Source: a virus (Duplodnaviria > Caudoviricetes). From it: a stretch of DNA of 61,299 bases. The DNA lies in the IMG/VR virus record IMGVR_UViG_3300007760_000655, positions 1 through 61,299 of that record; one strand, written 5' to 3'. Shown here in pieces: positions 1 through 60,830 of this stretch. Below the pieces are notes generated by a model. The model saw only the letters and a list, made by a program, of their open reading frames with translations. It had not been told where the DNA came from and made no database searches. The position numbers and the translations under genes were made by a program. How positions within the stretch are numbered: position 1 is the first letter of the stretch; each line of letters opens with the position of its first letter.

Positions 1-3000
1 GATAATAATTTTCAACATTTAGTATTGAATAGCAACGGTACGATAGCTTTTCAACAAAGAACAACTGGTGGGGGTAATATCTTTTATGAATATACAACTC
101 CAGTGTATCGTGACCCTTCAGCTTGGTACCATATTCTTCTTGCAGTAGATACGACACAAGCAACAGATACTAATAGAGTTAAATTTTATGTTAATGGTGC
201 ACAGGTTACGGATTTAAGTTATTCTGGTTCAATTGATAATTATCCAGCCCAAAATTACGAAGGGTTTATTAATGATGCTTTAGAACACCGAATAGGTATA
301 TGGCAAGAAACTGGAGGGGGTGGTAGCCGAGGTGGTCATATGTATATGGCAGAAGTACATTTCATAGACGGACAAGCCTTAACCCCAGCTTCATTTGGAG
401 AAACAGGTACTTATGGTGAATGGAAACCTAAGGAAGTTACAGGTGTGACATACGGAAATAATGGATTCTATCTACCATTCAAGCAAGACTATACAGTAGA
501 GGGTTTTAGTACGGTTACTTGGAAAGGTAATGGAAACTACGGACATTATATTGGTGGTACTGGATTTAAACCAGATTTAATTTGGACAAAAAGACGAGAC
601 GGTTCAGTTTCTCATCAACTTGTAGATGTCATTAGAGGTGCTGGAAATAGACTAAATTCTAATAATACAAACTCAGAAGGTACATATATTGGTGTTAATT
701 CATTTAATTCTGATGGATTTTCATTAGGAACAGATGATGCTTACAATGGAAGCGGTTCATCTTATGTATCTTGGAACTGGGATATGGGTGCTAATAGTCC
801 TACTGGTTTTGGTTGTGTTATTTGGACAGGCAATGCGGTAGATAATCGAGAAATTTCAGGAGTTGGTTTTCAGCCTGATTTAGTTTGGCTTAAGTCTAGG
901 AGTGATGCAGACCATACTTATGTACAAGATTCTGTTAGAGGGGCTCAAAAACAATTAATTACTACTGAAACAGGTGCTGAAACAAGTTATACAAATGGTG
1001 TTAAATCTTTTACTCCTGATGGATTTACATTAGGCACTTCAAATTGGGCTGGTGAAGATAATCAAACAAGAGTTGCTTGGTGTTGGGATATGGGAGGTAC
1101 TACTGCTACTAATACAGATGGTAGTATTACTTCAACTGTAATGGCTAATCCTACTTATGGGCAATCTATAGTATCTTGGGAAGGTACAGAAGCTAATGCT
1201 ACTATTGGACACGGATTAAGTTCTGCACCTGAAATGATAATTGTAAAAAATCGTGATAGAGTTTGTAATTGGGAAGTTTATTATGGAGATAATACAGACT
1301 ACTTAAGATTAAATACAACAGATGCGACAGTTGATAATGTTAATAGATGGAATGATACATCACCAACATCATCTGTTATATCACTAGGAGCAGGAGCAAA
1401 TGTAAATGGTAATAATGAAAGTGTTATAGCATACTGTTTCCATAGTGTATCTGGCTACAGCAAGTTTGGAACTTATACAGGTGATGCTACAACTAACCAC
1501 TCTAATAGTGTAACTTTAGGATTTAGACCAGCATTTTTAATGGTTAAGAAAACAAGCGGTACTGGTAATTGGGTTATAGTTGATAATGTTCGTAATCCAA
1601 TGTCTAATGATGTTGATAAATATGTTAAAGCAGATACTACTGATGCAGAAGCTACACAGTCTGGAGAGTTATTTAAGTTTACTTCTACTGGATTTACAAT
1701 TGGAGCAAATTTAGGTGATGTAAATGCTAGTGGGGCAACTTATGTTTATATGGCATTTGCTGGTGGTATGGATAGTATCTCAGACTACAATGATACTGGC
1801 TCAATAGACTCTAGGGTTAAAGCAAATCCTACTTATGGACAGAGTATAGTTAAATATGTTGGTGACCAGACTTCTGCTCAAACAGTTGGACACGGACTTA
1901 GTTCCGCTCCAGAAATGATAATAGTTAAAGAATTAGAACTTGCTAAAAGTTGGGCTGTTTACCATACAGGTTTAGGAAATACACATTCATTAAAACTAAA
2001 TGATGATAGTGCTACTTATGATAATGTTAATAGGTGGAATGATACTACACCAACTAGCACAGTATTTTCAATAGGTACAAGTGATGAAACGAATTATACT
2101 GACGATAATCATATAGCCTACTGTTTCCATAGTGTAACTGGGTATAGTAAGTTTGATACATATACTGGTACAGCAGGTACTCATACAATTACAACAGGTT
2201 TTAATCCAGCGTTCATAATGATTAAGAGAACTAATACTACTGGTGAACATTGGTATATGTATGACAATACTCGTTTTCCTCATTCACAACAAAATAATGT
2301 AACTGCTAATAATGATAGTGCTGAAAGTGGTAATTCTTCTATGCTGATTAATTATCTTGCTACTGGATTTCAACTAGTTGGTACAAATGCTGGTATCAAT
2401 GCTTCAGGCGATACCTACATCTACGCAGCTTTCGCTGACAAACGAGAGTACGCTTATTGGTTAGACCAATCAGGCAATAATAATGACTGGGCAAGTAATA
2501 ACTTAACAGAGTCAGATATTATGGTTGATAGTCCTACGAATAACTTTGCTACAATGAATCCTTTAATAAATATGTCGGGTGAACAACCATCAAGTTATGC
2601 AGAAGGAAATTTAAAAGTTGTAACACCTGCCTCTGGTAATGGCTATACAAGTGGTACTATGGGTATGAGTAGCGGTAAGTGGTATTGGGAATTTTTAATG
2701 ACTGCCCATACTGGCTCTGCTGCTGCAAAAATTGGTATTACTAAGGGTATCTTAAATAATTCTGGTGCTGAAGCAGGGGATGTAGCAGATGAGTATATTT
2801 ATACTGCCTTAACTGGTTGGAAACAAAATGTTTCGGGTAGTGCTTATGGTGCTACTTGGACTACTGGCGATATTATTGGGGTTACTTATGATGCTGATGA
2901 TGGTGATTTAGTTTTTTATAAAAATAATGTTTCACAAGGAGATGCGTATACTGGATTAACTGGAACTTTCTTTCCAGTTATGTCAGATGCTAGTGGTGCT

Positions 3001-4176
3001 GCTCACGGTGTTACGATTAATTGGAACTTCGGTGCAGACTCAAGTTTCGCAGGTAACAAGACAGCACAAGGCAATCAAGATGGTAATAGTATAGGTGATT
3101 TCTATTATGAACCGCCTAGTGGTTTCTTAGCGTTATGTACATCTAACCTACCAGCAGCAACTGTTACACCTAGTGAGCATTTTAATACTGTGCTTTATAC
3201 TGGAACTACAGGTGGGCAGAGTATTACAGGAGTTGGGTTTCAACCAGATTTATTAGTAATAAAAAATTATCAAAATGCAGGATATAGCCATCAATGGTTT
3301 GATGTTCTTAGAGGTGTTACTAAGGATATTAATTCAAATAGTACTGAACAAGAACAAACTATTTCCGATTCTATGACTTCTTTTGATTCAGATGGATTTA
3401 CTTTAGGTGCTGATTCTAGTAATGCTGAAGTTAATAATAACACTAAGGGTTACATAGCTCACAGCTGGAAAGGTGGTGGTAGTGGTTCGGCTAATACTGT
3501 TGGTGATATAGATTCTACAGTAAGTGTTAATACAGATGCTGGGTTTAGTATTGTTAGTTATACTGGTGATGGTAATTCTCCTGCTACCATAGGACACGGA
3601 TTGTCTAAAGCACCAGAACTGATTCATATTAAGAATAGAACAGATGTTGATAGCTGGATTTCTTTTACCACAGTTATTGATGGCTCTCTTGATTATATGT
3701 ATCTTAATTTGACAAATGCTAAAGCAAACTTAGGTATCTCAACTCCAACATCTACTGTATTTAGTGTTGATGATGGCAACCAAATAAATGGTTCAGGTGA
3801 TGCACATATAGCCTACTGTTTTCACTCTGTAGATGGCTACTCTAAGGTCGGTTCATATACTGGTAATGGTAATGCTGATGGTACATTTGTGTACACAGGA
3901 TTCAGACCTGCTTATGTTTTAATAAAGCCATCAAGCCGAACTGGTCATTGGCATATAGTTAATAATGAATCAAGTCCTAGTAATGTGGTTGATAAAGTTA
4001 TATTTGCTAATGATAGTGCAGCAGAATATACAGACCCATCTGCTGATTGTAAAAAAGACTTTTTATCAAATGGTTTTAAGATAAGAACAACAGATGACAA
4101 CACCAATGAAAGTGGTTCGACATACATTTACATAGCATTTGCAGAAACACCTTTTAAATACGCAAACGCTAGATAG
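1..4176 (+). CDS. Tail fibre / receptor-binding protein, LamG/SPRY (ConA-like) domains plus repeated modules; 5' truncated by window
   Basis: Frame open from base 1; repeated modules (GVGFQPDLVW, GHGLSSAPEM, IAYCFHSV, GFRPAF), SPRY-like GKWYWE; paralogous to 7278..10712. Confidence 0.75.
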   Translation, partial: DNNFQHLVLNSNGTIAFQQRTTGGGNIFYEYTTPVYRDPSAWYHILLAVDTTQATDTNRVKFYVNGAQVTDLSYSGSIDNYPAQNYEGFINDALEHRIGIWQETGGGGSRGGHMYMAEVHFIDGQALTPASFGETGTYGEWKPKEVTGVTYGNNGFYLPFKQDYTVEGFSTVTWKGNGNYGHYIGGTGFKPDLIWTKRRDGSVSHQLVDVIRGAGNRLNSNNTNSEGTYIGVNSFNSDGFSLGTDDAYNGSGSSYVSWNWDMGANSPTGFGCVIWTGNAVDNREISGVGFQPDLVWLKSRSDADHTYVQDSVRGAQKQLITTETGAETSYTNGVKSFTPDGFTLGTSNWAGEDNQTRVAWCWDMGGTTATNTDGSITSTVMANPTYGQSIVSWEGTEANATIGHGLSSAPEMIIVKNRDRVCNWEVYYGDNTDYLRLNTTDATVDNVNRWNDTSPTSSVISLGAGANVNGNNESVIAYCFHSVSGYSKFGTYTGDATTNHSNSVTLGFRPAFLMVKKTSGTGNWVIVDNVRNPMSNDVDKYVKADTTDAEATQSGELFKFTSTGFTIGANLGDVNASGATYVYMAFAGGMDSISDYNDTGSIDSRVKANPTYGQSIVKYVGDQTSAQTVGHGLSSAPEMIIVKELELAKSWAVYHTGLGNTHSLKLNDDSATYDNVNRWNDTTPTSTVFSIGTSDETNYTDDNHIAYCFHSVTGYSKFDTYTGTAGTHTITTGFNPAFIMIKRTNTTGEHWYMYDNTRFPHSQQNNVTANNDSAESGNSSMLINYLATGFQLVGTNAGINASGDTYIYAAFADKREYAYWLDQSGNNNDWASNNLTESDIMVDSPTNNFATMNPLINMSGEQPSSYAEGNLKVVTPASGNGYTSGTMGMSSGKWYWEFLMTAHTGSAAAKIGITKGILNNSGAEAGDVADEYIYTALTGWKQNVSGSAYGATWTTGDIIGVTYDADDGDLVFYKNNVSQGDAYTGLTGTFFPVMSDASGAAHGVTINWNFGADSSFAGNKTAQGNQDGNSIGDFYYEPPSGFLALCTSNLPAATVTPSEHFNTVLYTGTTGGQSITGVGFQPDLLVIKNYQNAGYSHQWFDVLRGVTKDINSNSTEQEQTISDSMTSFDSDGFTLGADSSNAEVNNNTKGYIAHSWKGGGSGSANTVGDIDSTVSVNTDAGFSIVSYTGDGNSPATIGHGLSKAPELIHIKNRTDVDSWISFTTVIDGSLDYMYLNLTNAKANLGISTPTSTVFSVDDGNQINGSGDAHIAYCFHSVDGYSKVGSYTGNGNADGTFVYTGFRPAYVLIKPSSRTGHWHIVNNESSPSNVVDKVIFANDSAAEYTDPSADCKKDFLSNGFKIRTTDDNTNESGSTYIYIAFAETPFKYANAR

Positions 4177-5087: not shown

Positions 5088-6494
5088 ATGGCAATCACAA
5101 TTTCAGGTACAGGAATAACAAGTGCTCAAATACAGGCTGATGGAATAGATGGCAGTAAGATAGCTGATGATGTTATTAATAGTGAACATCTAGCGGCAGG
5201 TGGTATTGATAATGAACATTTAGCTACGGGTATTGATGCGGCTAAATTAACTGGTACTTTACCTGCTATAAGTGGGGCTAACTTAACTAACCTTAATTTA
5301 GAATCAATTAGAAGAGATATAGCAACTCTAGCACTACACTCTGCAATAGCAGATAACAAAGCTGCATTTAATCTTCCCAATTCTTTTATAGACCAGTTTG
5401 AAGATGATTCAGGACTTGGCACACAAACAGATGTAGATAGAAATACTACTAGTGAATATGTATCTTCAATAACTCCCGCTGTTGGAGTAAACAGTAATAC
5501 AAAAATACTGCTTCATATGGATGACACTTCTTTAACTGACAGTTCTGGAACATCTGTATCAACTACCGTTACTGGTACAACGAGAAGTTCTGCTCAATCT
5601 AAATTTGGTGGTTATTCGGCTTTATTTGATGGTTCTGAGTATATTACATTTGCTAATGTACCTGCAATAGGCAGTAGTTTATGGGGATTGGATTTTTGGT
5701 GGCGACCAACAAATGTAACTGGTTCTGGAAGGCAAACATTTTTTGCTGGAGTGACTGATGGTCAATGGTTTGCATTTGGTCTTTCTGAAAGTGATACTAA
5801 ATTACAATTAGAAGTAGCAGCTAGTGGAGGTAATTGGCAAAGTTTAGGTACTCCAAAAGGAGCAAAAAATAGTTGGAATACTGGTCAATGGTATCACATA
5901 GCAATAGCAAGAACTTCAGATACAAATATTTCGTGGTATGTTGATGGTACTTTAGATAAATCACAAACAATAGCATCTGGTTCAATTAGCACTACTGGTC
6001 AGCCAAGATTGAGTGAATGGGGTGGAAACCAAAGTTGGTATATTGATGGATATATAGACGAATATCGTATGCAAATTGGAGAAAATCCTTTAGCTGTGGC
6101 AGCTGACCCATTATATATTGCTAGCTCTACATTTACACCACCAACTACAGCTTATTCAGCAGAAGTAGCTAGTGCAACTGGAACATTAATTTCAACAGCA
6201 CAGACTGCTAATGCTGCTCAAACAAAAGTAAGTGGAGTTATTCTTTATAAGAATGAAGAAGGTACAGCTACTTTAGGAACAGATTTAAAAGTTTATTTCA
6301 CTTGCAACGGGGGAAGTAACTGGACTGAAAGTACTCCAGTTGCAGCTGGAACATTTAGTACAGGAATCTTAATGGCAAAATGTCCAGAAGTAACTTGTAC
6401 AAGCGGAACTGATGTTAGATATAAAGTTGTATGGGCAAATCAATCAAGTGGGTCAAAAGAAACACAACTTCATGGCATAGGAATGAATTATTAA
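5088..6494 (+). CDS. Tail fibre protein with ConA/LamG domain
   Basis: LLHMD, QSKFGGYSALFDG, WYHIAIAR, GYIDEYR LamG motifs. Confidence 0.7.
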   Translation: MAITISGTGITSAQIQADGIDGSKIADDVINSEHLAAGGIDNEHLATGIDAAKLTGTLPAISGANLTNLNLESIRRDIATLALHSAIADNKAAFNLPNSFIDQFEDDSGLGTQTDVDRNTTSEYVSSITPAVGVNSNTKILLHMDDTSLTDSSGTSVSTTVTGTTRSSAQSKFGGYSALFDGSEYITFANVPAIGSSLWGLDFWWRPTNVTGSGRQTFFAGVTDGQWFAFGLSESDTKLQLEVAASGGNWQSLGTPKGAKNSWNTGQWYHIAIARTSDTNISWYVDGTLDKSQTIASGSISTTGQPRLSEWGGNQSWYIDGYIDEYRMQIGENPLAVAADPLYIASSTFTPPTTAYSAEVASATGTLISTAQTANAAQTKVSGVILYKNEEGTATLGTDLKVYFTCNGGSNWTESTPVAAGTFSTGILMAKCPEVTCTSGTDVRYKVVWANQSSGSKETQLHGIGMNY

Positions 6495-7277: not shown

Positions 7278-10200
7278 ATGTCTTTAATTCCAGCAACAGC
7301 CATACCTGCCTCCTCAGGAGATTTCACTTTAGACCAGAGTCTTAGGTTTGAAGATGGAGATAGTGTTTATTTAAGTAAGACACCAGCTAGTGCTAGTAAT
7401 CGTAGAACTTTTACTTTTAGTGTATGGTTTAAAAGAGGTAATATTTCCTATGGAGCACCACATTTATTTCAACCATTTACTGATGTTAATAATTATGATG
7501 CAATAATGATAAATAGTTCAGACCAAATGATTATAAAAGGACAAGTAAGTGGTAGTTCTTCTTATAATTATACAACAAATCAAAAATTTAGAGATACTTC
7601 TGCTTGGTATCATATAGTTGTTGCTTTTGATACTACAAATGGAACTGCTGGAAATAGAATTAGGCTATATGTAAATGGAACAGAAGTTACAAGTTTTGCA
7701 ACAGAAACAAATCCAAGTGAAAATTTAGACACTAGATATAATTTAGATGTACTCCACAGAGTAGGTGCAAATGGCAGTGGTGGAGAATTATATGATGGCT
7801 ATATGGCAGAGATGCACTTCATAGATGGTACTGCCTTAACACCATCTTCATTCGGAGAAACAGGTGATTACGGAGAGTGGAAACCTAAAGAAGTAAGTGG
7901 AGTAACTTATGGTACTAATGGATTCTATCTACCATTCAAGCAAGACTATGAAGTAGAAGGTTTTAGTGCTAATGTTTATACGGGTACTGGTGCTGCTGAT
8001 AACATAGTGCCAGGTGTAGGCTTTTCACCAGATTTAGTTTGGATTAAAAATAGAACAAATGGGGGTTATTGGGGCACTATATATGACCAAATTAGAGGAA
8101 CTGAAGAGGCTCTATATCCTAATGACTCATCCGCTGAATCTACTATATCCAGTACTTTAACAGCGTTTAATACTGATGGTTTTACAGTGGGTACTAATGT
8201 AGGTTTAAATACAGATGATAACCCACACGTTGCTTGGTGCTGGGATATGGGTGGCTCTAATGCTTCTAACACTAACGGAAGTATTACTTCAACTGTCAGA
8301 GCAAATACTACTTATGGACAGAGTATAGTTTCTTATACTGGTACAGGTTCTAATGCCACAGTAGGACACGGACTTAGTTCTGCACCAGAAATGATGATTA
8401 TTAAACGCAGAAGTTCAAGTCAAAGTTGGTTTGTATACCATGATGGAATAGCTGCTGATGCACAAACTGATGCAATAAAATTAAATTCAACTGCTGCTGC
8501 TTTTGATGACGATGGTGCGTGGAATGATACTGCACCAACAAATGCTTTATTTAGTTTAGGTTCTTCTGGTGGTGTTAATCAAAGTAGTGGAACATATATA
8601 GCCTACTGTTTCCATAGTGTAACTGGGTATAGTTCATTTGGAACTTATAGTGGTACAGGTGGCACAGGAAATGTTACTACAGTTGGATTTAGACCTGCGT
8701 TTATAATGGTTAAAAAATCAAGCGGTACTGGTGATTGGATGATATTTGATACTGCTAGACAACCTGCACCAGATGCCAATAAAACACATAAATATTTAAA
8801 GGCTAATGAACCAAATGCTGAATATACAGCAGGTGATGATGCAGCGGTTACTATAACTGATACATCATTTCAGATGTTTGGAAATATTGGTAATACTAAT
8901 ACTAATGGTCAAACTTATATCTATATGGCTTTCGCTGACAAACGAGAGTACGCATACTGGCTAGACCAAAGTGGTAACAATAATGACTGGACTTCTAATA
9001 ACCTAACAGAGTCAGATATTATGGTTGATAGTCCTACGAATAACTTTTGTACTTATAATCCTTTATCTTCAAATGAAGTATCAGTTCTAATGGAAGGTAA
9101 TTTAAAAAATTACGGAACTAATAATACAGCGACTAATGCTACTTTTGGTGTAACAACAGGAAAATGGTATTGGGAAGTTAGTTGGAACGCTGATATTGCT
9201 ACATCAACAGTTTCTTGGAATGGTGTTACAAGTCATTCACAGGAAAACGATGGCGATACTGCACCAACTATGGTTGGTACTGCTGGCAGGTCAGTATATA
9301 GAAATAAGGGTACTAATACCCAATATAAAGACTATACAGCAACTTCTAGTACAGACGATACTGATGTGGATGCTGGTGGTATTATGGGTTTTCGACTTGA
9401 TATGGATGGTGGTTCTCTCAAGTATTACCGTAATAATACGCTAGTTCATACTGATAGCACTATACCTACAGATGGTACAGTTATATATCCTGTTGCTATG
9501 AATAATAATTCTGGGGTTGCTCGTTATAATTCAAGGGTAGCAAACTTCGGACAAGACTCAAGTTTCGCAGGTACTCAGACAGCACAAGGCAATCAAGATT
9601 CTAATGGTATAGGTGATTTCTATTATGAACCACCTAGTGGCTTCTTAGCATTATGTACATCTAACTTGCCAGCAGTAGCTGTTACACCTAGTGAGCATTT
9701 TAATACTGTGCTTTATACAGCTAATGCTGGAACTAATGCTATTACAGGAGTTGGCTTTCAACCAGATTTAAGTTGGTTTAAGATTAGAAGTTCTACTGGT
9801 AGTCCAGTTTTGTTTGATGCAATAAGAGGTGTAAATAGTGGATTAGCATCTAATCAAACTGCTGCTGAATATATTGCTGCTTCTGATAAAGACCTTGTTT
9901 CTTTTGACTCTGATGGATTTACATTAGGTGCTGGAGAAGATTGGGCGTCTGTAAACCAAACAAACGGTACAACACACGTTGCTTGGAACTGGAAAGCAAA
10001 TGGTAGTGGTTCATCTAATACTAATGGTTCTATAAATACGACAGCAACTTCTGCTAATGTTGACGCTGGGTTTAGTATTGTTACTTGGGTTGGAAACGAA
10101 GGTGCTGATGAAACTGTAGGACACGGATTATCTAAAGCACCAGAAATAATAATTGCTAAAGTATATAGTGGTTTGACAGGCTCTTGGGCAACCTATGTAA

Positions 10201-10712
10201 AAAGCTTAGGCAATAATAAAAAATTGCACCTGAACGGCACTGATGCTGTAACTACAGATACAGATGTTTGGGCAGAAACCACACCTACAGCAAGTGTATT
10301 TTCAATAGGAACTGATACAGAAACAAACTGGGATGGTAGAAGTTACGTAGCCTACTGTTTCCACTCTGTAGATGGCTACTCTAAGGTTGGTTCATATAAA
10401 GGTAATGGAAATAATGACGGAACATTTATTTATACAGGGTTTAGACCTAAATGGGTATTAATTAAAGAATCAAGTCATTCTGGAGAAAATTGGAATATAT
10501 ATGATGGAGTAAGAGATACCTATAATTATGTAAGTAAAGCTTTATTTCCAAATACAAGTGGTGCTGAAACATCTGGTGTATCACAATCTTTAGATTTTGT
10601 GTCTAATGGTTTCAAAATAAGATACAACAATAATCATTATAACGATTCTGCAAGTACATACATCTACTTAGCCTTCGCAGAAACACCTTTTAAATATTCA
10701 AACGCTAGATAA
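7278..10712 (+). CDS. Tail fibre / receptor-binding protein (LamG + SPRY + repeats), paralogue of 1..4176
   Basis: Same architecture and the same C-terminus AFAETPFKYxNAR. Confidence 0.75.
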   Translation: MSLIPATAIPASSGDFTLDQSLRFEDGDSVYLSKTPASASNRRTFTFSVWFKRGNISYGAPHLFQPFTDVNNYDAIMINSSDQMIIKGQVSGSSSYNYTTNQKFRDTSAWYHIVVAFDTTNGTAGNRIRLYVNGTEVTSFATETNPSENLDTRYNLDVLHRVGANGSGGELYDGYMAEMHFIDGTALTPSSFGETGDYGEWKPKEVSGVTYGTNGFYLPFKQDYEVEGFSANVYTGTGAADNIVPGVGFSPDLVWIKNRTNGGYWGTIYDQIRGTEEALYPNDSSAESTISSTLTAFNTDGFTVGTNVGLNTDDNPHVAWCWDMGGSNASNTNGSITSTVRANTTYGQSIVSYTGTGSNATVGHGLSSAPEMMIIKRRSSSQSWFVYHDGIAADAQTDAIKLNSTAAAFDDDGAWNDTAPTNALFSLGSSGGVNQSSGTYIAYCFHSVTGYSSFGTYSGTGGTGNVTTVGFRPAFIMVKKSSGTGDWMIFDTARQPAPDANKTHKYLKANEPNAEYTAGDDAAVTITDTSFQMFGNIGNTNTNGQTYIYMAFADKREYAYWLDQSGNNNDWTSNNLTESDIMVDSPTNNFCTYNPLSSNEVSVLMEGNLKNYGTNNTATNATFGVTTGKWYWEVSWNADIATSTVSWNGVTSHSQENDGDTAPTMVGTAGRSVYRNKGTNTQYKDYTATSSTDDTDVDAGGIMGFRLDMDGGSLKYYRNNTLVHTDSTIPTDGTVIYPVAMNNNSGVARYNSRVANFGQDSSFAGTQTAQGNQDSNGIGDFYYEPPSGFLALCTSNLPAVAVTPSEHFNTVLYTANAGTNAITGVGFQPDLSWFKIRSSTGSPVLFDAIRGVNSGLASNQTAAEYIAASDKDLVSFDSDGFTLGAGEDWASVNQTNGTTHVAWNWKANGSGSSNTNGSINTTATSANVDAGFSIVTWVGNEGADETVGHGLSKAPEIIIAKVYSGLTGSWATYVKSLGNNKKLHLNGTDAVTTDTDVWAETTPTASVFSIGTDTETNWDGRSYVAYCFHSVDGYSKVGSYKGNGNNDGTFIYTGFRPKWVLIKESSHSGENWNIYDGVRDTYNYVSKALFPNTSGAETSGVSQSLDFVSNGFKIRYNNNHYNDSASTYIYLAFAETPFKYSNAR

Positions 10713-15002: not shown

Positions 15003-15031
15003 ATTATACTATAAAATAACCACTTTGTCAA
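15003..15031 (-). promoter_or_regulatory. Consensus sigma70 promoter
   Basis: TTGACA-17nt-TATAAT. Confidence 0.85.
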
Positions 15032-27913: not shown

Positions 27914-27942
27914 ATTATACTATAATTTGAGGTTAATGTCAA
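27914..27942 (-). promoter_or_regulatory. sigma70 promoter
   Basis: TTGACA-17nt-TATAAT. Confidence 0.85.
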
Positions 27943-29841: not shown

Positions 29842-30192
29842 TCAATCATCATAGTGTTCACCTTCAGCTAATAGGTGTACTATATTCAACATTGTAAATC
29901 CTCTACGCAGTTTTTGACAAGTCATACTATTTGCTTGGTCATAACCTCTTGCGTAATAGGCATCTTGAGTATCTTCTGTAGAAAAACCATGTATCTCTAC
30001 TGCTTTTTCTATAAATTCTCCTCCTAGTACTGATATGCCACCACATCTTACGTGGTAGTTTGCCATAGCACCCAGTACTGCTCCTGTATAATCTCTATAC
30101 TCTAGAAGTAATTTTTCATTCCAGTTATCTCCTAGTTCTGAAAAACTACTTGTAGAACATATTAAGAGTAAAGTACATATTAGTTTTTTCAT
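29842..30192 (-). CDS. Hypothetical exported protein
   Basis: N-terminal signal peptide MKKLICTLLLICSTSSFS. Confidence 0.55.
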   Translation of the reverse strand: MKKLICTLLLICSTSSFSELGDNWNEKLLLEYRDYTGAVLGAMANYHVRCGGISVLGGEFIEKAVEIHGFSTEDTQDAYYARGYDQANSMTCQKLRRGFTMLNIVHLLAEGEHYDD

Positions 30193-30512
30193 ATTCCGTA
30201 GTCCTTTAACCAGTGTGCAAAAAATCCTTTATCTGTTACTCCTGTGTGTCTGGCAACCTCTGTGCCATTAACAAATAGAACTAGAGTAGGGATACTTCTA
30301 ATGTTATATCTTTCAGATAAATACTTGTTTTCATCTACATCTATCTTTACAACACCAAATTCACCGTAACCATCTCTTGCAACCTTCTCTAATATTGGAG
30401 CCATCTGCTTACAGGGTTCACACCAACTAGCATAGAAATCTACTATAACTAGACTTTTATTTAGTACATCATAATCAAATCTATTATCATCTGACGCTAT
30501 TACATAACTCAT
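30189..30512 (-). CDS. trxA: Thioredoxin
   Basis: VDFYASWCEPCK, IRSIPTL; probable start ATG 30512 after AGAGG SD. Confidence 0.92.
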   Translation of the reverse strand: MSYVIASDDNRFDYDVLNKSLVIVDFYASWCEPCKQMAPILEKVARDGYGEFGVVKIDVDENKYLSERYNIRSIPTLVLFVNGTEVARHTGVTDKGFFAHWLKDYGI

Positions 30513-30529
30513 ACAGTTTCCTCTTAAAT

Positions 30530-30800
30530 TAAGTTGGAGGCTGTTGTAGGACAGCCTGCCTAAACCTGTTGCTCTTATACCAACCGAGGTGTTTTTCGTC
30601 ATGCCTCATCCGACTACAGGATATTTTCTCATTGAGGGGTCTTCCCGTGACCTATCCTTAGTTAAAGTCTAATCTATTTCAGCCCCATCAGGGTGACACT
30701 AACACACTAAATGTGTGGGAGGAGCATGTTAATGCCACATTGGTGGAGCTGGCTGGTACTGCCCCAGCGTGCTAAAACCATTGGATTTAATCCTTTCGCA
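30530..30800 (-). ncRNA. ssrA: Circularly permuted (two-piece) tmRNA-like gene
   Basis: T-arm GCTGG-GGCAGTA-CCAGC + CAGCTCC-A-CCA ending at 30741, a 54-nt spacer, then GGGGCTGAAATAGATTAGAC starting at 30686; 7-bp acceptor stem with G3.U alanine determinant; outer ends approximate. Confidence 0.85.
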
Positions 30801-30809
30801 GATATAGGC

Positions 30810-31195
30810 AAAAAAGTGGGGGGAGGTTTCCGCGTCTGACCTCACCCCCGCCTAGGCTACGTCTATTAGAATTTCTTTTCTCTCAAAGAGGGAAGTCGAT
30901 TCAAGGCACTAGTTTCCCATGACTTCAAGTCTCCTTATTTTAGGGCGTGAAAGACTCCTACGCCCCTAACTACATTTTTTTATCCTGCGATTCGTTTAGA
31001 ACTTGCAGTCTTAACTAGCTGGTTTGGTCTTCGCCCCTTTAGTTGCTAAGCCTTTATCCAACCACCAATCAGTACGGAATGCTATCAATACCCCCTCTGA
31101 CGAGTTTTCGGGTCAGTTGTTTCTGTTCCCCTACTTGATACTGAAGCCCTTATTTGACATTGGCTGTTAATTACTGGTTAAATTTCTCAATTTCT
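30810..31195 (-). ncRNA. Candidate structured ncRNA (~380 nt)
   Basis: Between perfect promoter 31203-31231 and a hairpin+T6 at 30810-30853; no credible ORF; many hairpins. Confidence 0.5.
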
Positions 31196-31202
31196 GAACT
31201 AT

Positions 31203-31231
31203 ATTATACTCGGAAATCACCAAAATGTCAA
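31203..31231 (-). promoter_or_regulatory. sigma70 promoter driving the ncRNA/tmRNA cluster
   Basis: TTGACA-17nt-TATAAT. Confidence 0.85.
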
Positions 31232-31635
31232 GTTATATTTTTCAGAGAAGGATTAGGTAAGAAATCCAATATACCCAAGCGGCTATTAGTCCAACCACCA
31301 AAAATGCAAATATTAAATTGTTATGTATTGTTTTCATTTTCTCCAATCGTTACGCCACAAAGGGCGTGGTTTAGTTTGTTCTTCCTCTCTTTTTTCTTTC
31401 TCTCTTTTTTCTTCCTGCAGTTTTAGGTACTGCATCATTGTTCTATCTACCTTTATTAAACCCATATTTTTAAGTTCCATATTAGTAACAATTTATGTTT
31501 CTCCCTTCTGCTATGGCTTCTAATACATCTATACCATATAATACTGAGAGGCTTTGGCAGGAGTCTGCCACTATACTATAGCCTATGATTAAACCTAACC
31601 CTAGAGTTAAAACACCCCCTATGGTTAGTATAAAT

Positions 31636-32091
31636 TTATTCAAAAGCTTCTATTCCTAACTTGTGTGAGTCTATACCGAATAATCGTATATACTCCGAGT
31701 CTTTTTTCCAACTTGTAGCGTCTGGAGTCCATTTTGTATTTACTTCATCAGCAATTTCAGTTCTGGCAACATTTGCCTCCAACGCTTTTTGTTTCAGTAA
31801 TTTTTCCTTGTCGCCTTTACTCTCGATAAGCTCATCTAGTTGCTTATCAAGACTTTGTTGCTGTTTTTTCTCTAAGCCTTTTTCGAATTGTTCCCAGAAA
31901 TCAATAGTTGAACGAAGAACTTCTTCTTCTGCTTGACACTCTGATAATCTTAATTCTGCTGCGATATATTCTTTGTCCGTAAGTTCAGGCCAATTAAATT
32001 TTTCTGCTATAGCCTCTTGCATACGTTCGTTTGCAACCAATTCTTCTTTGGCTTCATCTATTGTCATTTTGAACATAATTTTTGTAGACAT
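31636..32091 (-). CDS. Hypothetical coiled-coil protein
   Basis: ORF downstream of promoter 32141-32169 (TTGACA-17-TATAAT). Confidence 0.6.
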   Translation of the reverse strand: MSTKIMFKMTIDEAKEELVANERMQEAIAEKFNWPELTDKEYIAAELRLSECQAEEEVLRSTIDFWEQFEKGLEKKQQQSLDKQLDELIESKGDKEKLLKQKALEANVARTEIADEVNTKWTPDATSWKKDSEYIRLFGIDSHKLGIEAFE

Positions 32092-32178
32092 AATTTTTTA
32101 GTTTCCTTTTTTTAAGTTAAATTTCGATTTTATAATGAATATTATACCAAAGTTTTAGGTTTTTGTCAAGAATTATTT

Positions 32179-37547: not shown

Positions 37548-37647
37548 ATTATACCGAAGTTTTACCTTTTTGTCAAGGAATATTTTTAAGCATCTGAAGG
37601 GGCATAGAAAAATTCTTCTTGACATAAAACCCCACTTAGGGTATAAT
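37548..37647. promoter_or_regulatory. Divergent pair of consensus sigma70 promoters
   Basis: Minus TTGACA-17-TATAAT 37548-37576; plus TTGACA-17-TATAAT 37619-37647. Confidence 0.85.
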
Positions 37648-43482: not shown

Positions 43483-43511
43483 ATTATACTAAAATTTCAC
43501 CTTTTTGTCAA
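43483..43511 (-). promoter_or_regulatory. sigma70 promoter
   Basis: TTGACA-17nt-TATAAT. Confidence 0.85.
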
Positions 43512-49306: not shown

Positions 49307-51136
49307 ATGAAGAAGCTAGCTGTAATAGTGCCATTATTATTGGCATTGTTACTTACATTCGTACACTATAACGGTGGCAAGGTTGTAGAAACGGCCAAGC
49401 TTAAACAGTTCGATTTACTTCAACAAACAGATGAACCCGTACTATCTCAGGATATTGGAGTTCTCACAATAGATGAGGAAGCTATAGAGAAGTATGGTCA
49501 ATGGCCTTGGTCTAGAGAAATACTAGGTGATTTAATTTGGAACTTACGCGAGGCGGGAGCAGGCATAATAGTTGTTCCAATCCTTTTTTCGGAAGAAGAT
49601 AGGCTAGGTGGAGACGAGTTATTTGTATCCGCACTACCAAACAACGGTGTAGTTATTGCACAGGTTGGTTCTAGCCAAATAAATAAGAATGGTGTACCTA
49701 GAGGTGTAGCGAAAATAGGAGACCCAATTCCGTTCCTCTTTGAGTGGGGCGGTATGCTTGGGCCGATACCCTTATTAGGACTGAATGCAGATGGAGTTGG
49801 AGTACTAAATACGGTACCCGAGATTGACGGAGTTGTACGTCGATTGCCTCTTATGATGCGCATAGGAGAAGAAGTATATCCTTCAATAGCGGTGGAAGTA
49901 CTTAGAGTTGCAACTGGTAATCCTTCATATCAGGTTAAGGCTAACGCGGGCGGTATAAGCGCAGTACGTGTTAAAGGTTTCCCAGTTATGAAGACTGACC
50001 AGAATGCTCGAATCTGGCTGAGGTGGAATAAGAAATTTGATACAGTTTCTGCCGCCTCTACCGATTTATCTTCTTTTGAAGGGAGAACAGTATTAATAGG
50101 AGCAACGGCGGAAGGTGTTGGTGGTAAGATTGGCTCACCAACTGGCCCACAACATAACTTCATCCCTGCTGCAGTTTCTTTACAAACACTAATAGAGGGA
50201 GAAACTATACAGAGGCCGTACTGGGCTCATACTGCGGAATTACTAACAACATTACTACTTGGATTATTTATTGTTGTTTTAGTAAGGTTTGCTCCGTACT
50301 GGTTAATTGGATTATTCTTTGCAGTAGATATAGGTGCGCTTGTTTACGGTACATTGTACGCATGGCAGAACTACTTATATTTACTGAATATGACAATGGC
50401 TCTGACTACTACTTTAATAGTAGGACTCGTAGCAGTATTTGGCAGATTTATAATAGAATTTAAAGCCAAACAACTTATTAAGAAACAGTTTGAGCACTAT
50501 CTCGACCCACGACAGGTCGCTATACTGCAAAAGAACCCAGAGATGCTTAAGTTGGGTGGCGATAGGAAAGAAATGTCGTTTTTGTTTTCTGACATTGTAG
50601 GGTTTACCCCAATTTCAGAACATTTTAAAAATAATGATGACCCAGAAGGGTTGTGTGAATTAATTAATGACTACCTGGATAGAATGACCAAAATTATTAA
50701 CGATAATGGTGGTTGTGTAGATAAATATATGGGTGACTGTATTATGGCGTTTTGGAACGCACCTATACCATGTGAGAACCACGCCGAGATGGCTGTAAAG
50801 AGTTCTATGGAGATAGCAGTCGAGACAGAGAAGCTTAAAGCCGAACTAGCTGCTAAAGGGTTACCAGAAATAAAAATAGGCTCTGGTGTGAATACTGGAG
50901 ATTGTATTGTTGGTAATATGGGTTCCAAGACTAGGTTTGATTATTCTTGTATCGGTGACGCAGTTAACTTAGCCGCTAGACTTGAGGCACAGACTAGACA
51001 ATATCCTAACTGTACTACTTTATACTCATCTTACACAATGGAACAATTACCTAATAATATGAAGTCAGTAGAAATTGATAAAGTTAAGGTGAAAGGTAAA
51101 GATGAACTAGTTACTATATATTCACCAACGGAGTAA
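49307..51136 (+). CDS. CHASE2-domain class III adenylate cyclase
   Basis: IDE...GQWPWSR, DGVVRR (CHASE2), 3 TM, FSDIVGFT, DKYMGD (adenine-selecting Lys), GDAVNLAARLE. Confidence 0.93.
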   Translation: MKKLAVIVPLLLALLLTFVHYNGGKVVETAKLKQFDLLQQTDEPVLSQDIGVLTIDEEAIEKYGQWPWSREILGDLIWNLREAGAGIIVVPILFSEEDRLGGDELFVSALPNNGVVIAQVGSSQINKNGVPRGVAKIGDPIPFLFEWGGMLGPIPLLGLNADGVGVLNTVPEIDGVVRRLPLMMRIGEEVYPSIAVEVLRVATGNPSYQVKANAGGISAVRVKGFPVMKTDQNARIWLRWNKKFDTVSAASTDLSSFEGRTVLIGATAEGVGGKIGSPTGPQHNFIPAAVSLQTLIEGETIQRPYWAHTAELLTTLLLGLFIVVLVRFAPYWLIGLFFAVDIGALVYGTLYAWQNYLYLLNMTMALTTTLIVGLVAVFGRFIIEFKAKQLIKKQFEHYLDPRQVAILQKNPEMLKLGGDRKEMSFLFSDIVGFTPISEHFKNNDDPEGLCELINDYLDRMTKIINDNGGCVDKYMGDCIMAFWNAPIPCENHAEMAVKSSMEIAVETEKLKAELAAKGLPEIKIGSGVNTGDCIVGNMGSKTRFDYSCIGDAVNLAARLEAQTRQYPNCTTLYSSYTMEQLPNNMKSVEIDKVKVKGKDELVTIYSPTE

Positions 51137-52234: not shown

Positions 52235-52521
52235 TGGAATTAGGTGAAATAATCAATAAGTATGGTTTCCCTATTATCGCAGCAGGTGGTTTAGGTTATT
52301 TTATATACTTTATATGGAGATGGGTAACTGAGAAAGTAGACCCGATTATTGGTGAGAGTCATATGACTCTTATTGCTCTAATTGATAGAATACGAATGTT
52401 AGATAATGATTTAATCAGACTTAATGCTAAATTAGATATGATTATACAGCAAAAGGAAGAAGCGAATGAAATTAAAACTAACGATATTACTACTTCTAAG
52501 TCTAACGGCTCAGGCGGGTAA
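52234..52521 (+). CDS. Small membrane protein (paralogue of 51140)
   Basis: GFPIIA...GYF, LIDRIRMLDNDLIR. Confidence 0.6.
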   Translation: MELGEIINKYGFPIIAAGGLGYFIYFIWRWVTEKVDPIIGESHMTLIALIDRIRMLDNDLIRLNAKLDMIIQQKEEANEIKTNDITTSKSNGSGG

Positions 52522-52951
52522 TCTAAATTTCAGTTTTAGTAACCCATCATTTAGTGGGGAAGGGTACTCAAGCCACGTACTGTCGATTGAGCAACTGCAA
52601 CACAATAGAGAACAAGGTGTACTAGATGACGCAACCGCAGCAGAGAAAGCCGCGGATAGAGCAGCTAAGAACACTACTTTAGCTAAGTTTGTAACTAATG
52701 TTGAAAGTCGTATATTTGCAAATCTTTCTAAGCAGATGGTGGATAATATGTTTGGTACTAATTGTACTCCATCTGATGATGAAATAGCAGATGACGTAGA
52801 ATGTCCTACCTCAGGTTCAGCAACTTTACCAGATGGGTCTACCGTACATTGGATAAAGGATGAAACAGCAGAAACTATTACATTAACAGTTACCGATGCT
52901 TCTGGAAGTATAACTCAATTGATTGTACCAGTGGGTGATTTTAAATTTTAA
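52466..52951 (+). CDS. csgF: Curli assembly protein CsgF-like
   Basis: Signal peptide then L.F.FSNPSFSG; adjacent to csgG. Confidence 0.8.
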   Translation: MKLKLTILLLLSLTAQAGNLNFSFSNPSFSGEGYSSHVLSIEQLQHNREQGVLDDATAAEKAADRAAKNTTLAKFVTNVESRIFANLSKQMVDNMFGTNCTPSDDEIADDVECPTSGSATLPDGSTVHWIKDETAETITLTVTDASGSITQLIVPVGDFKF

Positions 52952-52961
52952 GGTGATTAAT

Positions 52962-53858
52962 ATGGAGTACCTAGCAATAGCTTTATTATCCTGTGTAGTG
53001 GGAGCTTGTTCTGTTAATCAAAAAACAGAAGCAATACAGGGCGATATGCCTTTTGTACAAGGAACTCCAACTAAAACCTTGTTACAAGAGATGCCAGAGC
53101 TGATAAACGTGCCGACAGATGGCGAGGGTAACCCAGTAAAGATTACGGTAGCTGTTTACAAGTTCCCTGATGTTACAGGACAGAGAAAGCCAGTTGGATT
53201 ATCGACAGCAGTTTCACAAGGAGCTGATGTATGGGTTATACAGGCTTTAATGGCAGTTAGTAATGGAGAATGGTTCACAGTTGTCGAAAGAGCGAGTTTA
53301 GACTCTTTAGTTAAAGAAAGACAACTTATAAGGAGTACTAGAGAATTATATGACGGCACAGACGCAGGAGATGCGTTACAGCCTATGTTATTCGCAGGTT
53401 TAATATTAGAAGGCGGTATTGTTGGTTATGATACTAACACAACAAGTGGGGGTGCTGGAGCAAGATATTTTGGTTTAGGTTCACATGAAGAATATAGAAC
53501 AGACCAAGTAACAATATCTTTAAGACTCGTTGCTGTACAGACAGGAGAGATTCTACTGACTGTATCATCAACTAAAACAATAGCAAGTATCAGTAATGGA
53601 GCAGATGTATTTAGATTTTTAGATTTGGGTACAAGAGCTTTAGAAATAGAATCAGGCAATGCAGCGAATGAGCCAGTTAACTATGCTATTCGAACTGCAA
53701 TTGAATACGGAATTTTACAAATGCTTTACGACGGTAAAGAAAAAGGGCTATGGGAGTGGGAAGAATCAACAACCGCAGAAGTTGTTGAGAACGTAGTCGA
53801 TTATGAATTAGTAGACGGTTGGGCACAACACCCAATTTCTGAAAAACAAGGGGAATAA
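52962..53858 (+). CDS. csgG: Curli secretion pore CsgG
   Basis: Lipobox VGAC, AVYKFPDVTGQRK, STAVSQG, VVER..L..L.KERQLIR, EGGIVGYDTN. Confidence 0.92.
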   Translation: MEYLAIALLSCVVGACSVNQKTEAIQGDMPFVQGTPTKTLLQEMPELINVPTDGEGNPVKITVAVYKFPDVTGQRKPVGLSTAVSQGADVWVIQALMAVSNGEWFTVVERASLDSLVKERQLIRSTRELYDGTDAGDALQPMLFAGLILEGGIVGYDTNTTSGGAGARYFGLGSHEEYRTDQVTISLRLVAVQTGEILLTVSSTKTIASISNGADVFRFLDLGTRALEIESGNAANEPVNYAIRTAIEYGILQMLYDGKEKGLWEWEESTTAEVVENVVDYELVDGWAQHPISEKQGE

Positions 53859-58585: not shown

Positions 58586-59587
58586 ATGAATAAATTCGAT
58601 TATGTATGGTTAGATGGCTATTTGCCTGAACCTAACCTAAGAAGTAAAGTAAAAATAGGTAAAACTGCAGATGTGTGGTCATTTGATGGCTCATCTACTA
58701 AGCAAGCTACAGGGGATAAATCAGATTGTATCTTAAACCCAGTAGCACATTATAAAACAATTGACAGAATTCGTCCTGACGCTACACGTACGGGTCCAGG
58801 GTTGGGTGGTACTTATGTAATGTGTGAAGTTTTAGACGCAAACTATGAGCCGCATGAAAGTAATACTAGAACATACTGTGAAGGTATAAGTGAGGATTGG
58901 TGGTTTGGGTTTGAACAAGAATACTTTATGTATAAGAATGGGCGCCCACTAGGGTGGCCTAGTGAGCTGAGAGGAGACCCAGAACCGCAAGGAGAGTACT
59001 ACTGTGGCGTCGGTACGGGTAATGTAGTGGGCAGAGCAATTGTTGATAGACATACTGAAGCTTGCATGAATGCAGGAATAGGTATAACAGGTACTAATGC
59101 TGAAGTTGCCTTAGGGCAATGGGAGTATCAGGTATTAGGTAAAGGAATAAAGGCGGGAGACGACTTATGGATGTCCCGTTATATTCTTATTAAGATTGCA
59201 GAGAAACACGGTGTAGAAATCAATTTCCACCCCAAACCTCAGCAAGGTGATTGGAATGGGTCTGGTATGCATACTAACTTCTCTAATAGTTTCATGAGGA
59301 ACGAAGGGGGAGAAATGGAACTGCTAAGCATGTGCCATAAATTAAGTTTAAACCACGAAGTAGCTATGGTATTATATGGTTCTAATAACAACTTAAGATT
59401 AACAGGGAAGCATGAAACCCAATCTATAGATAAATTTAGTTACGGAGTTAGTGACAGGGGAGCAAGTATACGTATCCCTGCTATAGTAGCTACTGAATGG
59501 AAAGGGTACTTAGAGGATAGGAGACCCGCTTCAAATGCAGACCCTTACAAAGTAATGCGACATATTGTCGAAGCATTAGAAGAATAG
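58586..59587 (+). CDS. glnII: Glutamine synthetase type II
   Basis: [54 protein letters not shown]; 333 aa. Confidence 0.93.
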
Positions 59588-59588
59588 A

Positions 59589-59909
59589 ATGACATTAACA
59601 AAACAAGCCGCACACGTAATGCTAGACCGACTTAAGAATAGAGGTTCGGGGTTAGGTATTCGAGTGGGGGTGAGAACCGCAGGATGTTCTGGGTATGAAT
59701 ATGCCTTAGAATATGTAGATTCACTAAATAGTGATGATACTGTATTTAAAAATAGAGGAGTAAATCTTATTGTTGATTCTAAAAGTCTATTGTACTTGTC
59801 AGGTACAGAATTAGACTATCAAAGACAGGGTCTTAATGAGGGGTTTGAATTTTACAACCCAAATGTTAAGGCAGCGTGCGGGTGCGGGGAGTCAGTAACA
59901 TTTAATTAA
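59589..59909 (+). CDS. iscA: Fe-S cluster assembly protein IscA
   Basis: GCSG, NPN...CGCGES. Confidence 0.93.
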
Positions 59910-59918
59910 GGATAAAAA

Positions 59919-60440
59919 GTGGTAACAATAATAGATGAGTTTTTGGAACCGAGTTTACATAATTGGATATGTAAAGGAATTATAGAAAATAAATATTTTC
60001 CCTGGTACTTCCAACCAGTTACTGTACCTAACCCATTAATAAAACCTACTTTCAATACCTATTATGAACCTCAATCTAGTTACAATCATTTAATATATTT
60101 AGAGGAGTGGAGTGACTGGGGGCATTTAGTTAAGCCTATAATAGATAAGCTGGAAGTAGATAGAGTTTCTAGAATAAAGGTAAACTCTGTAATTAAAAGA
60201 AAACAACCTACTTTACATGGTTGGCATTTAGACCAAGCAAGGGAAGGAGAAAGTAAAGAAGATTTAAAAATAGCAATATATTATTTAAATACTACTAATG
60301 GGTACACTCTTTTAGAAGATGGTACTCGGATAGCTTCAGTAGCAAATAGACTTGTTATGTTTAATAATACTATGTTACATACTTGTGTTTCACAAACAGA
60401 TGTATATAGAAGAGTTGTAATAAATATAAACTATTACTAA
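59919..60440 (+). CDS. 2OG-Fe(II) oxygenase-like protein
   Basis: WHLD, YYLNTTNGYT, H....TD..RVVININY. Confidence 0.7.
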   Translation: MVTIIDEFLEPSLHNWICKGIIENKYFPWYFQPVTVPNPLIKPTFNTYYEPQSSYNHLIYLEEWSDWGHLVKPIIDKLEVDRVSRIKVNSVIKRKQPTLHGWHLDQAREGESKEDLKIAIYYLNTTNGYTLLEDGTRIASVANRLVMFNNTMLHTCVSQTDVYRRVVININYY

Positions 60441-60449
60441 GGAGAAATT

Positions 60450-60830
60450 ATGGCATATAGCGCAGCAGTACTAGATCATTATAATAATCCACGTAATGTG
60501 GGTAAAATGGATATGGAAGATAGAAACGTTGGAACAGGGATGGTCGGCGCTCCCTCTTGTGGAGATGTAATGAAGTTACAAATCAGAGTAAAAGATGACA
60601 TTATTGAGGATGCCAAATTTAAATGTTATGGTTGTGGCTCTGCAATAGCTTCTTCTAGTATTATTACTGAGATGCTTAAAGGTATGACCGTTAATGAAGC
60701 AAAAGAAATAAAAAATGTAGAGGTAGTCGACCAGCTTAACTTACCCCCAGTAAAAATACATTGTTCAGTACTAGCAGAGGATTCCATTAAGGCCGCTATT
60801 GCTGATTATAAATCAAAACAACATAGGTAA
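60450..60830 (+). CDS. iscU: Fe-S scaffold IscU
   Basis: DHYNNPRNVG, CGD, GCGSAIASSS, LPPVKIHCS. Confidence 0.95.
   Translation: MAYSAAVLDHYNNPRNVGKMDMEDRNVGTGMVGAPSCGDVMKLQIRVKDDIIEDAKFKCYGCGSAIASSSIITEMLKGMTVNEAKEIKNVEVVDQLNLPPVKIHCSVLAEDSIKAAIADYKSKQHR

Follow-up and report, generated by a model that had tools for sequence, protein, structure and literature searches.

On the minus strand of a phage genome that is best described as distantly T5-like lies a circularly permuted gene of the tmRNA type, in which the tRNA-like domain (TLD) of the alphaproteobacterial form is present and a canonical proteolysis tag is missing. The DNA analysed, called the window below, is a stretch of 61,299 nucleotides from an IMG/VR record. 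The gene is real, it is under selection and it is present in RNA libraries. It is read here, tentatively, as a permuted tmRNA descended from the canonical ones of sister phages, which would have kept the TLD and lost the tag, and which would release stalled ribosomes by way of a very short frame that does not encode a degron. Two-piece tmRNAs of marine phages are known; the tag-less form, the spacer loop and the leader set this clade apart.

Every tmRNA element quoted in the initial annotation was found by direct reading, on the minus strand (Table 1), and the circular permutation with an alpha-type T-loop that it proposed is supported by the sequence and by the Rfam alignments. The half that ends in CCA (to 30741) comes first and is followed by the spacer and by the half that begins with GGGG at 30686; the spacer of 54 nt and the 7-bp acceptor helix with G3.U were both confirmed by sequence reading. 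The TLD thus comprises the acceptor stem with G3.U, the discriminator A, CCA and the T-arm, and a U occupies position -1 of the 5' strand (TGAT before GGGG). The 5' limit of the acceptor piece (30810) is uncertain and was placed from the U-rich linker.

Table 1. Features of the tmRNA-type unit and its surroundings, in order along the minus strand (window coordinates)
Feature	Position	Strand	Basis or detail
Sigma-70 promoter, TTGACA-17-TATAAT	31203..31231	-	12/12 consensus positions
Structured leader RNA, ~380 nt	30819..31197	-	covariation, nhmmer
GC-rich leader hairpin, ~10 bp, conserved loop CAGACGCGGAA, then U-rich linker	30818..30849	-	
Acceptor piece: P2 5' strand, T-arm, acceptor 3' strand, A, CCA	30741..30810	-	Rfam alignments; 5' limit uncertain
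T-stem GCTGG/CCAGC	30768-30764 + 30756-30752	-	read from sequence
T-loop GGCAGTA (RNA GGCAGUA)	30763-30757	-	read from sequence
Acceptor 3' strand CAGCTCC	30751-30745	-	read from sequence
Discriminator A	30744	-	
Encoded CCA	30743-30741	-	
Intervening spacer	30687..30740	-	exactly 54 nt
Spacer stem, 16 bp	30738-30723 with 30708-30693	-	
Spacer loop CCUCCCACACAUUU, 14 nt	30722-30709	-	contains CCUCC
5' acceptor strand GGGGCTG (GGGGCUG)	30686-30680	-	TGAT precedes
GGGGCUG, D-loop-like GAAAUAGAUUAGAC, P2 3' strand	30654..30686	-	Rfam alignments
Module B (window type): helices GUCA/UGAC + CGGGA/UCCUG, small hairpin, A-rich GAAAAAC	30591..30653	-	
Candidate tag frame CGA AAA ACA CCU CGG UUG GUA UAA	30575..30598	-	frame tables
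P5-like hairpin GUUG-GUAUAAGAG-CAAC, UAA in loop	30568..30584	-	alignments
Terminal hairpin GGCUGU-CCUACA-ACAGCC	30539..30556	-	just before thioredoxin ribosome-binding site
Thioredoxin gene	30189..30512	-	Pfam PF00085, E 1.1e-26

In an alignment of distinct loci of the clade described below, the TLD is near-invariant. The fifth acceptor pair covaries among 19 distinct sequences, with G-C in 13 and U-A in 6. G3.U is kept and the T-stem is paired in all 19, an invariance that is partly due to the search pattern, which fixed the T-arm and the acceptor 3' strand when the loci were fetched and leaves the 5' strand and P2 as the free evidence. The proximal part of P2 is paired to 83.5% and is mostly invariant, and its distal part is paired to 65.8% and shifts between sequence types. 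The minimum free energy fold of the precursor core consists of P2, the T-arm, the acceptor stem and the spacer hairpin (-47.5 kcal/mol, z -3.4). Co-folding of the two pieces gains -11.1 kcal/mol compared to -9.8 +/- 2.7 kcal/mol for shuffles, which is non-discriminating.

The Rfam alpha_tmRNA model, named in the initial annotation as a check, does match the region, below its cut-off and in the core only. With E-values as the yardstick, this model (RF01849) scores 43 bits (E 2.7e-10, model positions 90-166 of 355) against a gathering cut-off of 50 bits, and the tmRNA_permuted model (RF04321) scores 45.3 bits (E 3.6e-7, model positions 22-119 of 213) against a cut-off of 47 bits; both matches are confined to the tRNA-like core, and a search at the gathering thresholds returned no match in the window. 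Two close kin of the window, L123 and L124, stay below the RF04321 cut-off as well (41 and 38.6 bits). The standard tmRNA model, RF00023, had no match on the record at E up to 10, ARAGORN called neither a tRNA nor a tmRNA in the 61-kb window, and neither the region nor the canonical tmRNA of the sister locus L131 had a blastn match among deposited phages. The claim of a complete tmRNA is not borne out: the gene fails on two properties of a tmRNA, a score above the RF04321 cut-off and a proteolysis-tag frame. The remark that standard finders miss the permuted form holds for ARAGORN in the window but not in five sister phages, whose permuted tmRNAs ARAGORN calls, so that the miss would be caused by the missing tag and not by the permutation.

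The alpha-type permuted core as such is common in phages: viral contigs contain at least 120 and 115 such stretches in searches with two overlapping spacer ranges. A search with the small subunit of ribonucleotide reductase (RNR) gave 29 related loci, the more distant ones at 68-76% amino acid identity. In L123 and L124 this element is found again, in synteny, and the acceptor pair is A5-U in place of C5-G. A further 28 loci came from scanning metagenomes for the 30-mer of the clade's T-arm and acceptor; these, the window, L123 and L124 make up the clade of 31 marine loci with 25 distinct sequences. Canonical permuted tmRNAs were called by ARAGORN in five of the 29 RNR-related loci, with the tags ANANTYSLAA in L130 and L151, ANANTYAIAA in L131, ANANTYALAA in L132 and ...YMALAA in L147. 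Three of them, L130, L131 and L147, have Rfam scores that span 71.9-105.6 bits, with 83.4 bits as the middle value, well above the cut-off. The remaining 22 of the 29 loci had none within their retrieved DNA.

These sisters share with the window the phage group, the RNR-linked locus, the design of acceptor and P2 and the flanks of the terminal hairpin; L131 also has the T-loop GGCAGUA, and L130 and L151 have a C-rich spacer loop. They differ from the window in having canonical tags and, in L130, L131 and L147, in passing the Rfam cut-off. The spacer hairpin of L130 and L151 is shorter, with a UCCCCC loop, and the L132 promoter lies ~15 nt upstream of its gene, without a long leader. Canonical and tag-less versions at one locus in close phages form a natural pair, which lets one ask what a phage needs from a tmRNA: ribosome release, tagging or host interference. 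Two further observations concern the sisters. The spacer of the canonical tmRNA of L147 (~5187-5360) is 173 nt long and, by eye, holds an open frame of 54 codons that begins with ATG and whose TGA stop adjoins the 5' GGGG. The tmRNA of L131 (10078-10415) has the 'alpha' T-loop GGCAGUA, yet it matches best the beta_tmRNA model (93.2 bits, cut-off 84), and the T-loop type does not track the Rfam lineage models in these phages.

The coding piece is 135-248 nt long in every member of the clade. A canonical tag frame, with a resume codon, a stop and a hydrophobic end in ...AA, was found in none of the 18 complete coding pieces, and a canonical tag in none of 18 leader sequences. The frames that are present have 4-8 codons and are all non-canonical. 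Every complete coding piece has an A-rich AAAC motif and, 11-24 nt later, a stop codon that lies within a hairpin or next to one. The candidate frame of the window, whose stop sits in the loop of the next hairpin, would yield at most RKTPRLV and possibly PRLV, and no other frame ends at the loop stop. The short frames of the relatives read ..P(P/L/Q)LV, SLLV, SPLV, SPLLKC and TYSGGRTR, and the SLLV frame of L291 ends in tandem UAA UAG. The second-last-but-one codon of the candidate peptide varies between R, P, L and Q among the relatives, and the conservation of its L-V is confounded with that of stem and loop. When the window is read directly after AAAC, in the resume mode of the sisters, the frame misses the loop stop and enters the thioredoxin gene. 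This longer frame, open in the window, the L278 type and L268, is taken to be a coincidence because it is stopped in L272, L277 and L270.

After P2 the coding piece is a mosaic, and members carry module A only, module B only or both. Module A consists of a hairpin or pseudoknot, UUAAAC and a short frame. In module B, the type of the window, the two helices are nested and GAAAAAC is followed by a hairpin with UAA in its loop; it occurs in 8 of the 18 complete distinct coding pieces and, in a diverged form, in two more. The window type is without a module of ~65 nt (hairpin, AAAAC and frame) that L270 and L269 have between P2 and module B, and its tag region may have been deleted outright. A PK1-like pseudoknot can be drawn in both modules; the version for module B was dropped, as covariation gives it no support. 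The region of the coding piece and module B folds no better than shuffles (z 0.02). The stem of the P5-like hairpin, as read from the alignments, changes on both sides (GUUG/CAAC, GCUG/CAGC, GUUAG/CUAAC), and the position of this hairpin resembles that of the stop-bearing hairpin of the canonical L130. The terminal hairpin is near-invariant in the clade, and its flanks UUUAGGCAGG...CCUCCAAC are common to L130. The thioredoxin gene follows directly downstream, is syntenic in all clade members that reach that far and is possibly co-transcribed with the tmRNA unit.

The contrast between a near-invariant TLD and a coding piece that is mosaic, tag-less and without excess fold stability would also suit a decoy, that is, an RNA which soaks up SmpB or blocks stalled ribosomes and so shuts down trans-translation in the host. 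The very strong promoter described below would supply the excess copies that such a role needs. In the available parts of the sources, a decoy role was proposed earlier for the TLD-only RNA of mycobacteriophage DS6A (PMC4131195, PMC11915505), and a molecule similar to it strongly inhibits the tmRNA of E. coli, perhaps by titrating SmpB (PMC4131195). A pure decoy, however, is expected to lose the features of its coding piece, and here the piece is kept in every member, with recurring units of AAAC and stop hairpin and with a covarying hairpin. The canonical tmRNAs that the sister phages keep in full imply, moreover, that this phage group generally profits from rescue and not from blocking. A decoy is considered unlikely.

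The promoter of the unit lies ~420 nt upstream of the T-arm and is conserved across the clade, fully so in both hexamers; transcription would start near 31197. The window contains 18 sites of the type TTGACA-N17-TATAAT with at most one mismatch, 11 of them perfect, compared to 1.0 expected, which points to a heavy reliance of the phage on consensus host-type promoters, like that of T5. Further sites are found, for example, at 15003-15031, 27914-27942, 32141-32169, 37548-37576 and 43483-43511.

RNAalifold gave 86 pairs from the predicted start to CCA, 22 of which are retained through changes on both sides. With nhmmer the leader was found only beside this TLD, at 34 loci and in the window, with the exception of a marginal match in L129 (E 4e-4). 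No Rfam family was found for it, the search with the leader alone giving one spurious hairpin match. The leader appears to be specific to this tmRNA variant and looks like an insertion, because the promoter of L132 stands so close to its gene. In the GC-rich leader hairpin 7 of the 10 pairs are compensatory and 93% of the cells are paired. The CGCGG of its loop can pair with CUGCG at 30801-30797, a pairing kept in 97.9% of the cells with little variation. In the alignment, the helix that encloses the upstream hairpin is only 61% paired, owing to a misplacement of its 3' strand by MAFFT; on inspection by eye, the pairing is kept in three sequence types. Positions 30851-30859 and 30805-30809 (minus strand) also co-vary across the clade by eye (GCCUAGGC..GCCUA, GUCUAGAC..GUCUA, GCUCGAGC..GCUCU), and the helix that they form bridges the U-rich linker, in which an RNA 3' end appeared. 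At 31482-31643 (minus strand) there is an ORF of 53 codons that is small-membrane-protein-like by eye, overlaps the stop of an upstream 151-aa ORF and aligns across most clade members.

The spacer is predicted to fold into a single hairpin (-18.5 kcal/mol, z -3.87) stacked on the acceptor stem, a model that supersedes an earlier one with two helices. In the 19 sequences, 99.7% of the cells of the stem are paired, versus 19-51% when the partners are slid; three pairs are compensatory, and the observed score was reached by none of 500 shuffles. The loop is identical in all 19. Its C-rich motif occurs in 2 of 148 distinct other spacers of alpha-type phage tmRNAs, both from the clade of the window. 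An ORF on the plus strand (30711-30839), with GGGAGGAG as its ribosome-binding site, is not a gene, because among the 19 sequences its length varies between 2 and at least 48 codons, and an antisense ORF thus fails as the cause of the loop's invariance.

The RNA evidence consists of assembled contigs, whose reach does not extend to ends, strand or DNA carry-over. About a quarter of a 601-base query is contained in six metatranscriptome runs from four studies. A contig of depth 16 without a mismatch extends from beside CCA through the spacer into the coding piece (30742-30589), another, of depth 2, covers 30778-30658, and contigs from three studies cover ~30847-31150 in the leader. In a contig of depth 51 from a close variant, the sequence passes into a sequencing adapter precisely at 30819, where the leader hairpin has its 3' foot; on a reading of this one contig, the junction marks a dominant RNA fragment end. 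No RNA contigs lie over 30350-30588 and 30779-30818, which is uninformative either way. Processing had been postulated at 30741 and 30686. The first site receives a weak hint from the one contig that starts at 30742; the second receives none, and two RNA contigs cross it. The contigs hint weakly at a cut at CCA and at a stable 3' end of the leader. Half or more of the stretch is contained in 14 DNA runs from at least nine studies. The element is thus widespread in marine metagenomes, yet it is missed by ARAGORN and by the Rfam cut-offs, which amounts to an annotation blind spot.

A spacer loop that is invariant above a covarying stem and bears a lineage-specific motif, together with a clade-specific leader, suggests selection on parts of the precursor that are usually deemed waste. 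The TLD might accordingly be a processing scaffold, a tRNA-type cutting signal for RNase P and 3' trimming that frees the leader and the spacer hairpin as riboregulators. The leader is conserved, richly structured and always beside the TLD, the dominant RNA 3' end at 30819 and the spacer-containing contig of depth 16 are in line with such a role, and the failure of the antisense ORF as an explanation leaves room for it. No target was identified, however, for the spacer loop or the leader, and the contigs cannot reveal the spacer as a free RNA. G3.U, the discriminator A and the encoded CCA are explained by charging no less well than by cutting alone. L130, moreover, combines a C-rich spacer loop with a normal tag, so the loop does not need tag loss. 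This function of the TLD is regarded as doubtful. More speculative, and rather improbable, is an early RNA operon with three products, in which host enzymes recruited by the TLD would free the leader and a 54-nt anti-Shine-Dalgarno (CCUCC) hairpin acting in trans on ribosome-binding sites or on a protein, and the tag-less tmRNA would free or block stalled ribosomes but leave proteins unmarked for destruction. The usual view takes phage tmRNAs for plain copies of the quality-control RNA of the host; if such an operon existed, the 'discarded' spacer would function as a riboregulator under selection, and the tmRNA would serve host takeover, not quality control.

The loss of the tag and the indels and module swaps of the coding piece could also mark a decaying relic, a tmRNA gene en route to loss and conserved through recent divergence only. 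This is very improbable: the many compensatory changes nearby (in one hairpin at 7 of its 10 pairs, and at 22 pairs in the leader) indicate time enough for decay, and in the meantime neither the TLD nor the spacer loop changed; the promoter, moreover, is perfect, and the region is found in RNA libraries. That the element is a host ssrA fragment, serving as attP or left by faulty excision, can practically be dismissed, even though ssrA is a common integration target (PMC4383910 and PMC9004378, in their available parts), since both halves of the TLD are present and pair, no integrase was found among the 86 ORFs scanned, the phage is of the lytic T5-like type and the bacterial and archaeal reference genomes scanned do not contain the exact 27-mer of the core.

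Under the preferred reading, a tag-less tmRNA that releases ribosomes, the host RNA polymerase would make a precursor of ~670 nt from the sigma-70 promoter, and host enzymes would cut it three times: once in the U-rich linker that follows the leader hairpin, once at CCA (30741) or beyond it and once, through RNase P, on the 5' side of G30686. A U at -1 and a 3' ACCA fit the preferences of RNase P. The 7-bp acceptor stem, together with P2, would keep the acceptor and coding pieces paired. Charging by host AlaRS would go through G3.U and the discriminator A, and host SmpB and EF-Tu would bring it to stalled ribosomes; no match to SmpB or AlaRS was found among the 86 ORFs scanned in the window, and the absence of SmpB implies host factors. 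Translation would resume on a frame of ~4-7 codons (...PRLV in the window) and end at the UAA of the hairpin loop, so that ribosomes would come free and no canonical ClpXP degron would be added. What was observed is the gene with its conservation and covariation, the match to a promoter and the presence in RNA libraries; the steps of processing, charging and translation are predicted. This reading is supported by the Rfam matches of the core, the 31 loci, the covarying acceptor stem and stop hairpin, the recurring AAAC motif with its stop codon, the canonical sisters, the 12/12 promoter and the RNA contigs over the unit. It is counted against by the missing canonical tag, the failure of ARAGORN and of both Rfam cut-offs, the frame after AAAC that misses the loop stop, the module absent from the window type, the mosaic coding piece, the varying peptide and the RNA contigs across 30686.

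Two-piece tmRNA of the Caulobacter type was reportedly described from alphaproteobacteria by Keiler et al. in 2000. The bacterial RNA (RF01849) has the same order of acceptor piece, spacer and coding piece and the T-loop GGCRGUA; the GGCAGUA of the window fits the consensus GGCgGUA, and GAAAUAG follows the 5' strand. It differs in that the window is without a tag of the ANDN type and its core occurs in no bacterial reference genome. The novelty suggested in the initial annotation was overstated, since two-piece tmRNAs have been published for marine phages (Buchholz et al. 2022, PMC9004378, available in part) and canonical ones occur in the same phage group. That source, in its available part, describes one in the OM43 myophage Melnitz and, for 18,146 phage genomes, arrives at a count of 53, of which 50 are marine or aquatic. 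For a T5-like or Demerecviridae phage, no tmRNA gene was found in the literature at the level of titles and abstract openings, and Table S1 of PMC9004378 could include one.

The RNAs of Melnitz and the pelagimyophages are, like that of the window, phage-encoded, permuted, alpha-type and marine, with an early sigma-70-type promoter, but their carriers are T4-like myophages and they are complete and callable by ARAGORN (PMC9004378, available part). The window differs from the Melnitz type in its T5-like phage, the lack of a canonical tag, the 380-nt leader and the invariant spacer loop. The available part of PMC11915505 lists 79 phage tmRNA sequences and 72 'permuted, no CDS' forms, as well as 2-aa tags and the DS6A TLD-only RNA. 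The DS6A RNA and the 'no CDS' forms resemble the RNA of the window in that a tRNA-like domain is kept and no tag frame can be recognised; the DS6A RNA, however, is in one piece with little beyond the TLD, whereas that of the window is permuted and has a structured coding piece of 135-248 nt (PMC4131195, PMC11915505, available parts). The 2-aa (Ala-Ala) tags of Fermentibacterota are a precedent for ribosome release being viable without a long degron, but these tmRNAs are bacterial and have a clear resume codon, and the candidate of the window ends in L-V, not A-A (PMC11915505, available part).

The assignment to a T5-like phage, made in the initial annotation, is supported by polymerase matches and gene content. 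The record has a CheckV completeness of 50% and 36% G+C. The best matches of its family-A DNA polymerase (PolA) are T5-like Demerecviridae, at 45.7-46.7% amino acid identity, and the gene set is of the T5 type, with an NAD-ligase in two ORFs, SbcC/D-like proteins, a flap nuclease, a DnaB-like helicase, a primase, RNR and thioredoxin. On these grounds and that of the 18 near-consensus promoters the label is fair, though distant. Neither the exact 27-mer of the core nor the sister tag ANANTYALAA in back-translation occurs in the bacterial and archaeal reference genomes (for the 27-mer, a collection of 185,579 species by the tool's description), and the host was therefore not identified.

Several other genes of the window, all on the plus strand, may be mentioned. 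The curli secretion genes CsgF and CsgG lie at 52466-53858; curli genes are shared with Melnitz and the pelagimyophages, where the curli operon is an odd feature, and Melnitz has in addition a glutamine riboswitch (PMC9004378, available part), for which the window gave no riboswitch match. A glutamine-synthetase-like gene followed by Fe-S assembly genes (IscA-like, NifU-like) occupies 58586-60830, and these are probably auxiliary metabolic genes. A protein of 609 aa with a CHASE2 sensor and adenylate/guanylate cyclase domains is encoded at 49307-51136. Two very large paralogues of 1383 and 1144 aa, at 25-4176 and 7278-10712, have SPRY and DUF7483 domains and are labelled by PHROGs as virion structural or tail fibre proteins.
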